Shown here: positions 5,743 through 9,492 of the stretch, in pieces | Layout of the letters: every line of letters starts with the position of its first letter | Position numbering within the stretch: position 1 is the first letter of the stretch | Source of the DNA: a virus | Lineage: Duplodnaviria; Caudoviricetes | Direction: 5' to 3' (one strand) | Length of the DNA: 33,260 nucleotides | Virus record (IMG/VR): IMGVR_UViG_3300023256_000001 | Coordinates: 1-33,260 of that record | The notes under the pieces: generated by a model | Told to the model about the DNA's origin: nothing | Databases searched by the model: none | The model's input: only the letters and a program-made list of their open reading frames with translations | Translations under genes and position numbers: made by a program

Positions 5743-5964
5743 TTACCATTTAATAGACTCAAGACCTTTCTTTCTGAATTGTCTCCCTAGTACCTTGCTC
5801 TTATGAACTTTGCTTTTTGGGAACTTCCAAAGGGTCTTTATCTTGATAGTATGTCTGACTGTTACATGAGAGCTGTAGACCTTGATAACTCTTTGAACCC
5901 TGAACTTACCATCTCTATCTTTATAGAGAACATGTTTTCCAAGCAAGTCTTTTTTGTCTATCAT
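5743..5964 (-). CDS. Small basic beta-rich (SH3-like?) protein; contains the gapped match to array unit A
   Basis: ORF track 5743..6006; likely start MIDKKDLLG at 5964. Fold is a guess from the pattern LLGKHVLY..DGKFR..RVIKV..SHVTV. Confidence 0.7.
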   Translation of the reverse strand: MIDKKDLLGKHVLYKDRDGKFRVQRVIKVYSSHVTVRHTIKIKTLWKFPKSKVHKSKVLGRQFRKKGLESIKW

Positions 5965-6110
5965 ACTATTACTATAGACTTGTAGCAATATATATGTTTG
6001 TAACATATAATGTTAATTATTAATACAATAATCATCATATCCAAACAATTTCGACAGCTATTTAAATCAAATAATGTTTAAAAAGTGTTATAAATGTTGT
6101 TTTTACAAAA

Positions 6111-6225
6111 AGTCCCCTTCTGGGATGTGAAAATATCACACTCCTATTTTATGGGAGTGTCATGTAGTGGGAGTCCCACCACATGAGACTTTCATGGTTC
6201 GACATAAGATACTATGTCTGGGGAT
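6111..6225. other. Dense cluster of hairpins (structured RNA or origin-like element)
   Basis: Inverted repeats TGTGA/TCACA (6126-6140), ACACTCC/GGAGTGT (6138-6160), CATGTAGTGGG/CCCACCACATG (6161-6185), GACATA/TATGTC (6201-6218), with possible closure TCCCC/GGGGA. Confidence 0.5.
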
Positions 6226-6349
6226 AACTACTAAAATATTAAAGAATGAAGAGGGGTAGAGTGAAAGTAATATTCCTCTGAGCTTAACTACACTTTACTA
6301 TACTACACTTTACTTCACTGTACTCTTCTAAACTTTACTCCATTCTATT

Positions 6350-6380
6350 GAAATAGTAGGGAGTTGCACCCTACCATCTC
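6350..6380 (-). repeat. Array linker type 1, 12-bp stem/7-nt loop minihelix (copy 1)
   Basis: Minus strand GAGATGGTAGGG-TGCAACT-CCCTACTATTTC; all 12 positions pair allowing G-U. Confidence 0.85.
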
Positions 6381-6513
6381 TTCTGTACTGGACTGTACTC
6401 CACTCCAATTCACTCCACTGAACTAGACTGAACTATACTATGCTTAACAGGACTTGGCTTTACTGTACTTTACTACACTCAACTACAGTTAACTAGACTA
6501 TACTGTATTGATT

Positions 6514-6544
6514 GAAACAGTAGGGAGTTGCACCCTACCATCTC
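6514..6544 (-). repeat. Array linker type 1 minihelix (copy 2)
   Basis: GAGATGGTAGGG-TGCAACT-CCCTACTGTTTC; the single difference from copy 1 changes U-A to U-G and keeps pairing. Confidence 0.85.
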
Positions 6545-6625
6545 TTCTGTACTGGGACTGTACTCCACTAGACTTGACCTGACTTGACTATACTTGACAT
6601 AACTTCACTTCACTTTACTATAGAT

Positions 6626-6779
6626 ATGGTAAGTCTGAGTTCTTTACTTTACTTCACTTCACTTTACTGAGCTACACTTAACTTGACTACACTTAACTAA
6701 ACTCGGCTTAACTCCACTTTACTTTACTGTACTTCACTATGCTATAAGTGAAATGGCAAGTCTGAGTTCTTTACTTTAC
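6626..6779 (-). repeat. Array linker type 2, two copies (ATGG[T/C]AAGTCTGAGTTCTTTACTTTAC at ~6626 and ~6753)
   Basis: Direct comparison of the two segments: one mismatch. Confidence 0.8.
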
Positions 6780-6845
6780 TTTACTGAACTTCACTAAACT
6801 GGACTTCACTCAACTATACTATACTAAACTAAACTCTGCTAAAAT

Positions 6846-7188
6846 CTAATCAATCAATGGTTTAATGGCATAAACAAACTTACTTAATTCATTATATTGT
6901 TTGTATCTTTCAACCCAGTTATCCAGCTCATGCTTTGCTCTATCAACTACCTGATTCCTATAATGTTCATTACTGAAACACATCTGTAAATCAACATATA
7001 CTTTTTGCTCTGAATCATCTTTTGGTATAACAGAATAAAAAGCTCTAATTGGTAGAGAGTCTCCTGTCTCAGTTATTTCAATAGTTACATGATTAACTAT
7101 GTTTCTTACCTGTTGTAATCTGTATTCATGTCCAGCTCTTACATCATCCCATTCAATGTAGTTATATAATAAATGTTTTTTCTTCCAT
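6846..7188 (-). pseudogene. 5'-truncated/frameshifted gene of the viral EWDD..A..YR..Q.R family, directly upstream of the pentamer array
   Basis: Open frame 6846-7187 encodes WKKKHLLYNYIEWDDVRAGHEYRLQQVRNIVNHV...IRAFYSV...RAKHELDNWVERYKQYNEL..(113 aa) but lacks a start. The SD-linked ATG at 7188 is one base out of frame and gives MEEKTFII*. Confidence 0.75.
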
Positions 7189-7243
7189 TATTGTGTCACC
7201 TTCTTTATTATTATTGAATGTAATATATTATTAATATAAATAA

Positions 7244-8230
7244 TTATCCATTGATGGGAACTTCATCTAGTATCCTTTCATCTTCAGGGACTTTGTTTGC
7301 TTCCATCTCAGCTTTTCTCTTGATAAACCGAGCAAGTCCATCTGGAATGTTGTAATTATATCTGATAGCATTGACTTCAAAAATGATATTATCTTCTGTA
7401 CTTCTCTTGGAGAGGAATTGTTTATTTTCTTTATTCTTAACCAAATCTTCCACAATTTCCTGTTGAGTCATTCTATTAGCATCTATCTCTTTATCATCTT
7501 CATTCTGACCAGCTCTTTCTCTCATTTGCTCAACTATCTTGTCTTTGAAAATCTTAGAATGCTCCTCATATACAGCTTCCATTTCTTTAGGTGGTCTAGC
7601 AATATTAATCTTTTTTAGAATTAATTTAACTCCATGAGCATCTTCATTTCTCATATTGAATCTACTGTAAACATAATAGACCTTTCCAGTTCTCTTATTA
7701 TACTTGACATCAAATGGTCTAGCGATAGCACAATCATTTCCCATCCTGTTCATTTCATAAAATCCATGAAACAATTTTCTAGCTTGAGAATCAATATAAG
7801 AAACATCCTGAGTTACAAAATAAACAATGGGTCTATACCTACCAAACACCTGTAAAACATATGAGATGGATTTGTTTGCGGTGTTGTACCATTCACGAGC
7901 TGGCATGCCAACTCCAGCTTCATCCCAAACAATAGCTCCACCTATGATATTCTTTTTTTTAATATCCTGTAGAGCTGTCATAAAATCATTTGGAAAATAC
8001 ACAACTCTCTTCCTGATATTCTCCTCAAAGGTCTTATCTAATACATGACTCATTGTAAGAGCTGTCAGGGATTTTCCCACTCTATGCTTCCCTGTGACCA
8101 TTCCTAGATAGTTGAATTTGAATGTATGTATTCTTTTAAAGATATGTCTAAAATAAAGACTTGCCAATGTCTTACCATCAACATCTCCAAAATAGTCTAA
8201 ATTATCGTTTAAAGATAATCTGTCCATCAT
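7244..8230 (-). CDS. P-loop ATPase, probably virion morphogenesis/genome extrusion (Zot/pI-like)
   Basis: Walker A GKHRVGKS, Walker B IVWDEAG, downstream FVTQ..YIDSQAR motif typical of Zot/pI-like ATPases. Confidence 0.85.
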   Translation of the reverse strand: MMDRLSLNDNLDYFGDVDGKTLASLYFRHIFKRIHTFKFNYLGMVTGKHRVGKSLTALTMSHVLDKTFEENIRKRVVYFPNDFMTALQDIKKKNIIGGAIVWDEAGVGMPAREWYNTANKSISYVLQVFGRYRPIVYFVTQDVSYIDSQARKLFHGFYEMNRMGNDCAIARPFDVKYNKRTGKVYYVYSRFNMRNEDAHGVKLILKKINIARPPKEMEAVYEEHSKIFKDKIVEQMRERAGQNEDDKEIDANRMTQQEIVEDLVKNKENKQFLSKRSTEDNIIFEVNAIRYNYNIPDGLARFIKRKAEMEANKVPEDERILDEVPING

Positions 8231-8910: not shown

Positions 8911-9492
8911 ATGCCTAACTATACGGATAGTAATGTGACTCACATCATTGATGCTGATGAATTTAAAGCACTCTACAACCACTGTAAGAATGTCAGAGAC
9001 CAGACATGGGTAAGCATCCTATGGTTAACAGGTGCTAGACCTCAAGAATTAATTGAAATGATAAAGACAGACATCACAATATTACCAGACAAGATTAAGT
9101 TTCATATTAAAACTAAGAAGCTGAAAAAGACTGGTGGATTTTTTGTAGAAAAAAGAACACTTGTTTTGAGGACAGAAGTATTAGAGAGATATGTCAAAAC
9201 TATTGAGAGACACCTGAGCAGATTGAAAGATGATAGTCTGATATTTCAATTCTCAATCAGGACAGGATTCAATGTCATCAAGAGACTTGGATGGTCAGTC
9301 TTAGGTATAGGCATATGTCCCTACAACTTCAGACATAGCAGAATGACTCTTCTAGCTGAGAAGGGAGCATCTATTGATAACTTAATGAAGTTCAAAGGAG
9401 CTAGGTCTAGGAGAAGTGTAAGACCATATCTTCATGCAAGAAAAGTTGAATATGAAGTAGAGGTTGATGTGGGAGATGAACTAGATGAATAA
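8911..9492 (+). CDS. Tyrosine recombinase/integrase (catalytic domain only)
   Basis: LTGARPQEL (catalytic R), KTKK, YNFRHSR (HxxR box with Y), C-terminal RPYLH tyrosine. Likely start ATG 8911 with GGAG upstream (track starts 8815). Confidence 0.88.
   Translation: MPNYTDSNVTHIIDADEFKALYNHCKNVRDQTWVSILWLTGARPQELIEMIKTDITILPDKIKFHIKTKKLKKTGGFFVEKRTLVLRTEVLERYVKTIERHLSRLKDDSLIFQFSIRTGFNVIKRLGWSVLGIGICPYNFRHSRMTLLAEKGASIDNLMKFKGARSRRSVRPYLHARKVEYEVEVDVGDELDE

Follow-up and report, generated by a model that had tools for sequence, protein, structure and literature searches.

The two near-identical hairpins at 6350-6380 and 6514-6544 lie exactly at guide boundaries of a VIPR vrRNA array carried by a salt-lake virus, and are by position the 3′ tails of guides C and D (Table 1). 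Our leading interpretation, held tentatively and at somewhat less than an even chance, is that these tails are look-alikes of the tRNA acceptor/T-arm minihelix, predicted to be cut by host RNase Z and possibly by RNase P; among the plausible readings it ranks first, with a plain protective or assembly hairpin close behind. In the corresponding model, a five-guide vrRNA array would be transcribed from the minus strand, host tRNA-processing enzymes would recognise the hairpins of guides C and D, and RNase Z, possibly together with RNase P, would cut at the stem base. This cut would separate neighbouring guides and leave a protected end, and the guides would be loaded onto a Vipr protein supplied in trans.

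The window, that is the whole 33,260-bp stretch of DNA that was analysed, is a complete virus record with terminal repeats originating from salt-lake metagenomes; its minus strand carries nearly all genes, and matches to known families are very few. The gene-free stretch between the genes at 7189-6846 and 6006-5743 is built of pentamers on the minus strand, where about 90 AGU-NN units span 6280-6845; over the minus strand of 6270-6860, 71 exact AGU triplets keep a strict 5-nt phase and fall into five blocks. The NN positions are almost random, with 3.67 of 4 bits and 15 of the 16 dinucleotides in use, and the conservation of AGU next to near-random NN argues that the array is under selection. 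Each of the five tracts is followed by one of two tail types, a hairpin in two cases (C and D) and an unstructured tail in three (A, B and E), and guides C and D end in the same last units (AC, CC, AC, AG).

Table 1. Coordinates of the array, its tails and the neighbouring genes in the window
Feature	Position	Strand	Description
Truncated, frameshifted vap-type (VIPR accessory) gene	6846..7189	-	phrog_15946; sole protein gene in the cassette
vrRNA A repeat tract	6766..6845	-	about 15 AGU-NN units, strict 5-nt phase
Guide A tail, unstructured, type 2	6744..6769	-	GAACUCAGACUUGCCAUUUCACU...; MFE 0
vrRNA B repeat tract	6640..6743	-	about 20 units
Guide B tail, unstructured, type 2	6620..6642	-	MFE 0
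vrRNA C repeat tract	6545..6619	-	about 15 units, one extra C at about 6554
Guide C hairpin tail	6513..6544	-	12 bp, loop UGCAACU, then unpaired A
vrRNA D repeat tract	6381..6509	-	about 24-25 units
Guide D hairpin tail	6349..6380	-	12 bp, loop UGCAACU, then unpaired A
vrRNA E	6285..6344	-	12 units, AAUGG, AGUAA ... AGUUA; putatively reads sister virus G001
Guide E terminal tail	6100..6284	-	CUCAGA...UUUCACU stretch, then strongly structured 3′ domain
87-aa gene	5743..6006	-	allele in sister virus is the predicted guide E target; own copy has 4 mismatches

The vrRNAs of VIPR systems are, as a class, RNAs of ~100 nt that are bound by Vipr. As described in the accessible parts of the 2026 preprints, 9-16 GGY-NN pentamers make up a vrRNA, with a structured tail at its 3′ end (10.64898/2026.04.26.720920), its NN positions read double-stranded DNA with one base skipped per unit (10.64898/2026.04.26.720920, 10.64898/2026.04.26.720927), and WGT/NN repeats represent non-canonical VIPR arrays (10.64898/2026.10.21.760802). 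On the strength of a vap-type neighbour gene and of a skip-rule target in a sister virus, the array is shown at the sequence level to be a vrRNA array of a VIPR system, the CRISPR-like silencing kind published in those preprints. Given the VIPR context and the skip-rule target, a TRAP-like or other RNA-sponge reading of the pentamers was dropped, as were DNA-level readings such as a pac site or an iteron. A CRISPR array was rejected as well. Such an array would alternate spacers with direct repeats of about 24-40 nt and come with cas genes, whereas the period here is 5 nt, nothing longer is repeated except the two tail types, each present in two copies, and no RAMP was found.

A scan of viral contigs for the pattern (AGUNN)7AGU returned 119 loci, mostly plain microsatellites and about 16 with variable NN. 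A phrog_4652 (Vipr) protein adjoins the AGU-NN array in all four annotated variable-NN loci, and one phrog_4652 protein matches the PDB entry 36pp, ‘SUSP1 Vipr protein’, with an E value of 4.6e-30. In locus L040 (1860-2563; also in L111), about 139 AGU-NN units form an array that breaks phase once and lacks structured linkers; a Vipr-like gene flanks it on one side and a terminase large-subunit gene on the other. Loci L130 and L052 (L130 3480-4160) carry six AGU-NN guides, between which stands a linker of another kind, ~60 nt long, whose two hairpins, TAGAAC..GTTCTA and AAGCCT..AGGCTT, constitute another tail type on the same triplet code.

The product of the gene at the head of the cassette matches phrog_15946 with an E value of 9.2e-14 over profile positions 44-140 of 151. 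Compared with the family, it lacks about 35 residues at the N terminus, and its ATG start is followed, after 4-5 codons, by a frame change in an A-run of six at about 7170-7176. We call the gene vap-type because its family adjoins Vipr elsewhere: gp20 of Gordonia phage Ecliptus, a homologue that matches phrog_15946 with an E value of 3.9e-49, lies behind a Vipr gene and a GGC-NN array, and a Vipr-HMM match stands beside a phrog_15946-type homologue in 7 of 7 viral loci. A single-sequence scan yielded no close relatives of the gene, and kinship with phrog_5926 was rejected, no relation being found by BLASTP or hhalign. In run X10, one contig carries 235 other letters in place of 6898-7170, so the gene is polymorphic in the population.

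Searches of the virus for vipr itself gave no match to the phrog_4652 profile at E values up to 10, a best E value of 0.54 for an HMM of 78 Viprs over 132 six-frame ORFs, a best hhalign probability of 1.1% over 40 ORFs, and no G-loop motif in mid-sized ORFs. With no detectable vipr gene, the locus is therefore classed as a ‘solo’, or vipr-null, array, after the phages with vrRNAs but without vipr that are described in the 2026 VIPR preprints, and Vipr would be supplied in trans by another element. Neither was a RAMP or Cas6-like gene detected among the 132 six-frame ORFs, in agreement with the original prediction of an array maturing without a Cas6-like nuclease.

We applied the skip rule to the five tracts, taking the window and the two complete relatives as possible targets. 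For guide E, 23 of 26 positions agree with the sister virus G001, under a skip of one only: shuffled guides average 18.1 and reach at most 19 of 26, skips of 0 and 2 likewise reach at most 19, and a skip of 3 finds the array itself alone (26/26), with a next-best score of 18. Counted over 12 units, with the degenerate first one included, the match is 23/24 at G001 9213-9248; the skipped bases coincide with third codon (wobble) positions, and the guide reads the codons G-K-F-R-T-E-R-V-I-K-V-Y of G001’s copy of an 87-aa gene that sits just ahead of genes for 1214 and 493 aa. A metagenome contig from the G001 lineage gives the same match again. The window’s own allele (5872-5910, minus strand) pairs at 20 of 24 positions and carries four mismatches, and guide E looks like a device for excluding a close relative while sparing its own genome. 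For guides A-D, the window, G001, G002 and 11 other related loci (roughly 200 kb) were searched with 9-unit windows at a threshold of at least 16/18; there were zero matches, where controls averaged 0.0-0.5.

A repeat search recovered the two hairpins as a single 45-nt family with two copies, 6347-6391 and 6511-6555, which are 98% identical and include the constant flanking pentamers. Folded as minus-strand RNA, each copy forms an uninterrupted 12-bp stem capped by a 7-nt loop, with free energies of -18.6 and -18.0 kcal/mol and z-scores of -3.21 and -3.17; of 200 shuffles, 2 and 0, respectively, fold as well. The plus strand, in contrast, retains only the 6 G-C-rich pairs at the top of the stem (z -0.28 and -0.11). 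The sole difference between the copies is a minus-strand A versus G (6354/6518), which turns a U-A into a U-G pair, so that pairing is kept only in the minus-strand RNA; as evidence for the stem, one one-sided change between two copies is weak. These observations bear out the original prediction that the region is a guide array, that the two copies pair fully on the minus strand only, and that the single difference between them preserves pairing. The hairpin linkers also keep the pentamer phase (6345-6389 and 6509-6559, AGU-to-AGU distances of 50 and 55 nt), whereas the unstructured linkers break it (37 and 29 nt).

Relatives for comparison, two complete viruses and 12 metagenome loci, were collected via the virus’s ATPase gene. 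The array occurs in neither complete virus and is absent from 11 of the 12 loci, the sole carrier being a locus identical to the window; no homologous hairpin was found among these relatives, and none is therefore available for covariation analysis. The block 6150-7193 has no counterpart in G001 though both flanks align. A blastn comparison of 5950-7250 with phages matched nothing, and an exact 20-mer of the hairpin occurs in none of the viral contigs searched. The identical cassette is present in many salt-lake runs from 2017 to 2020 (19 listed runs, none of them RNA), and contigs of four DNA runs have zero base differences in the parts covered, which leaves no natural variants of the stem.

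Minihelices of tRNA are substrates of RNase P, RNase Z and the CCA-adding enzyme, and the T-loop consensus is U54 U55 C56 R57 A58 with a G53-C61 closing pair. The hairpins resemble such a minihelix in geometry, with a 7+5-bp stack, a 7-nt loop and an unpaired A after the stem, and have no CCA; the loop U-G-C-A-A-C-U supplies U1, C3, A4 and A5 together with the G-C closing pair, but has a G at position 2 (55), where tRNAs have U. In the absence of a connector with the D-loop GG, no tRNA elbow can form. Numbered as an acceptor stem, the hairpin displays G1-C72, G3-U70 and A73, the alanine identity elements; as an identity set they were set aside, being not significant given 2-3 G-U pairs in 12 bp and an AT-rich flank, and the other tRNA-like tails do not have them. 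RNase P is reported to require a T-loop-like loop while tolerating loss of the D-loop (PMC4919913).

We scanned for tRNA-like modules with 5/5 T-stem pairs, a loop U[U/G]C[A/G]A.. and at least 6/7 acceptor pairs, a loop pattern that had been relaxed to allow G after the hairpin was seen. On both strands of the window, the scanner marked three places, namely the two hairpins and a weaker match inside a coding region. Across 72 Vipr loci, it returned 76 modules on the strand of Vipr and 5 on the opposite one, and 57 of the 76 have a 10-11-nt connector. Such tRNA-like tails (L138-L165, e.g. L138:3229-3271) join an acceptor stem of 7 bp to a T arm GUUCGAnnC by a 10-11-nt connector in which GG is conserved, are without CCA, and occur mostly in AGU-NN arrays, directly after the repeat tract and before the next guide. 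In 14 distinct modules, 11 of 12 pairs show both-sided changes and the G53-C61 pair is invariant; the modules having been chosen by a scanner that demands pairing, the high percentage paired is partly by construction and only their compensatory variety counts. In locus L164, loops of both UGCGAGU and UUCGAGU type are built into this architecture; the class of tRNA-like tails thus does admit a G as second loop base. The connector GG resembles G18-G19 of the D-loop, and the single tail that lacks it (L164:3180-3222) is also the tail whose T-loop has G instead of U at position 2.

A covariance model of the 14 tRNA-like tails, run over the whole window with filters off, produced 11 matches at E values up to 10, and the hairpins are not among them; as scored by this 14-member model, the hairpin is outside the tRNA-like tail family. 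No Rfam family reached its gathering score over the hairpins, where the Tymovirus tRNA-like element scored 14.8 and 12.7 bits (E 2 and 6.8; gathering 40), and ARAGORN returned zero tRNAs on the window. The tRNA-minihelix mimicry originally predicted thus stands in its geometry, with 7+5 bp, a 7-nt loop, a closing G-C and an unpaired A, but draws no support from the covariance model, Rfam or ARAGORN and sits uneasily with G at the second loop position.

These negative scores weigh in favour of a serious contender, which we consider a realistic possibility though not our favoured one, namely that the hairpins are ordinary vrRNA 3′ tails, stable stem-loops that would block 3′ exonucleases and/or cap or nucleate the Vipr filament, with coincidental tRNA-like numbers. 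A structured tail is described at the end of published vrRNAs, taking the form of a pseudoknot in the SUSP1 clade, and the shared consensus tail of that clade is treated in the preprint’s accessible parts as making the vrRNA competent for Vipr complex formation (10.64898/2026.10.15.759431). The tails of the 72 Vipr loci, moreover, vary widely, their hairpins measuring 6-17 bp and their loops 3-9 nt, and the terminal domain of the array itself has another 12-bp hairpin with a loop of only 3 nt. Against coincidence, a perfect 12-bp/7-nt hairpin occurs in none of 123 distinct tails from these loci, so the geometry is not a generic tail shape, and the loop conforms to U-N-C-R-A behind a G-C closing pair. 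If Vipr loading required this tail, furthermore, all five guides should have it, yet three lack the hairpin. The same three of five guides imply that a hairpin is not the general way of cutting the array, and the linker-free AGU-NN array of L040 is likewise a point against the minihelix reading. A cut by RNase P at the 5′ base of the stem would, in addition, cost the guide its tail.

At the junctions without hairpins, the original prediction had placed a different linker. Two unstructured copies of a type 2 linker, GAACUCAGACUU(G/A)CCAU at 6769-6753 and 6642-6626, are indeed found there, with no predicted structure; what had been missed is a third, related unstructured tail, CUCAGA...UUUCACU, after the last guide. 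Such unstructured tails would presumably be trimmed by other nucleases. Beyond the third tail, the region of guide E continues into a domain that folds, over 6100..6284, at -52.9 kcal/mol (z -4.03, with 0 of 200 shuffles as good) and includes a 12-bp/3-nt-loop hairpin (6160-6186) as well as a short hairpin that a U-run follows; below about 6150, this terminal domain is common to the relative G001. Each tail type has its own constant last pentamers, and duplication of guide-plus-tail modules within the array fits the data equally well as the assembly from two sources proposed earlier.

Tandem duplication of this kind raises an improbable alternative, in which the VIPR locus is a decaying remnant and the hairpins, without any function themselves, are a neutral by-product of guide-plus-tail duplication. 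The cassette is without vipr, its vap-type gene is truncated and frameshifted, the two copies are 98% identical over 45 nt including the flanking pentamers, and, among the relatives, both complete viruses and 11 of the 12 metagenome loci are without the cassette, all of which would suit such a remnant. Decay is, however, difficult to reconcile with the retention of AGU beside near-random NN, with a guide E that matches a co-occurring sister virus at 23/24 while sparing its own genome, with the persistence of the identical cassette in many salt-lake runs from 2017 to 2020, with no differences in the parts of it that four runs cover, and with the fact that the one difference between the copies keeps its pair.

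Two further explanations are less probable still. Transcription terminators or attenuators, acting within the array or on antisense (plus-strand) transcription, are very unlikely: a consensus scan flags both hairpins as terminator-like on the plus strand, where CATCTCTTCT comes after 6 pairs, but those 6 pairs are all that the plus strand has and fold no better than shuffles (z -0.1 to -0.3), the minus-strand stem is without a following U-run, and a terminator inside the array would block guides D and E, the latter being the guide with the only identified target. Least probable, and to our mind scarcely credible, is the reading of the linkers as self-cleaving ribozymes or as cleavage sites of a dedicated endonuclease encoded by the virus. 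Hammerhead-interspersed vrRNA arrays have been reported (10.64898/2026.04.26.720920), yet no ribozyme family, hammerhead included, matches 6090-6860 at E values up to 10, and RAMP, Cas6 and Vipr went undetected in the 132 six-frame ORFs.

The array belongs to VIPR, a kind published in 2026, and represents its AGU-NN variant and its solo form. Like type II VIPR of Escherichia phage SUSP1, as far as described (10.64898/2026.04.26.720920, 10.64898/2026.04.26.720927), the array consists of pentamers of a fixed triplet plus NN, with several guides in a row and each with a 3′ tail; it also shares the one skipped base per unit at the codon wobble and a target in a competing related virus. The array differs from SUSP1-type VIPR in its triplet (AGU here, GGY there), in its tract length (12-25 units against 9-16), in tails that are a plain 12-bp hairpin or unstructured rather than a pseudoknot, and in the lack of vipr, with phrog_15946 as accessory in place of the phrog_5926 found beside SUSP1-like Viprs, to which it has no detectable relation. 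With the published solo-vrRNA phages, it has in common vrRNAs without vipr and a guide that spares its own genome and matches a relative. Those phages are enterobacterial, with GGYNN units, SUSP1-type pseudoknot tails and many guides against vipr/vrRNA loci, whereas the present case is an uncultured salt-lake virus with AGU-NN units and a truncated vap gene that is kept, and its target is a small gene ahead of large structural genes. AGT-NN falls within the WGT/NN repeats, whose survey, in its accessible parts, describes arrays of about 10 repeats beside a Vipr-like fold, does not discuss tails or linkers, and has ‘tRNA-like’ 0 times (10.64898/2026.10.21.760802).

With the tRNA-like VIPR tails of L138-L165, the hairpin shares the same place in the array, a 7+5-bp stack, a 7-nt loop, G-C closing, the lack of CCA and, in most of them, the AGU-NN code. 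It is unlike them in having neither connector nor elbow, in its loop (UGCAACU versus UUCGAUU) and in scoring below every reported match of their covariance model. tRNA-like processing signals are also familiar from mascRNA of MALAT1 and from engineered tRNA-gRNA arrays, and the hairpin resembles such cutting marks as a 12-bp acceptor/T stack with a T-loop-like cap between functional RNAs, cleavage being here a prediction.

In their accessible parts, the VIPR preprints report hammerhead-interspersed and staggered arrays and do not explain how an array is cut into single guides. The words tRNA and RNase P do not occur in the main texts of three of them or in the supplement searched. A broader idea, which we regard as speculative and rather unlikely in its full extent, is that host tRNA-maturation enzymes provide an unpublished third route for cutting VIPR arrays, with marks ranging from full-elbow tails down to the bare 12-bp minihelix; after cutting, the minihelix (G1-C72, G3-U70, A73) would be open to CCA addition and conceivably to charging by alanyl-tRNA synthetase. 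If tRNA-like tails are indeed cutting marks, VIPR would borrow a universal host machine, defined guides from vipr-less ‘solo’ arrays would be explained, and engineered tRNA-guide arrays would have a natural counterpart. To this, the locus adds a putative minimal, elbow-less version of the tRNA-like tail, an AGU-NN array without an effector gene, and a clean case of a guide directed at a sister virus with self spared.

As to the identity of the host, the original prediction had invoked archaeal enzymes, and the comparison lends this no support, the sole cellular hint being a contig in a bacterial, Saccharibacteria-labelled MAG. That contig (L222, in a MAG labelled Candidatus Saccharibacteria) holds the only cellular-genome match to the virus’s Zot/DnaA-like ATPase, at 55% identity; it measures 35.6 kb, about the virus’s size, and has 33% GC. 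It gives a weak hint that the host could be a CPR bacterium rather than an archaeon.

Two short sequence correspondences, both probably fortuitous since the hairpin region has six such 10-mer matches elsewhere in the genome, were noted between the array and the 87-aa gene of the window. The 5′ arm of the hairpin (6372-6381 and 6536-6545) has a 10-mer in common with the gene at 5907-5916. The tail of guide B (6620-6634) is complementary at 14 of 15 positions to the virus’s own gene at 5904-5918, forming an inverted repeat at the start of the guide E site.
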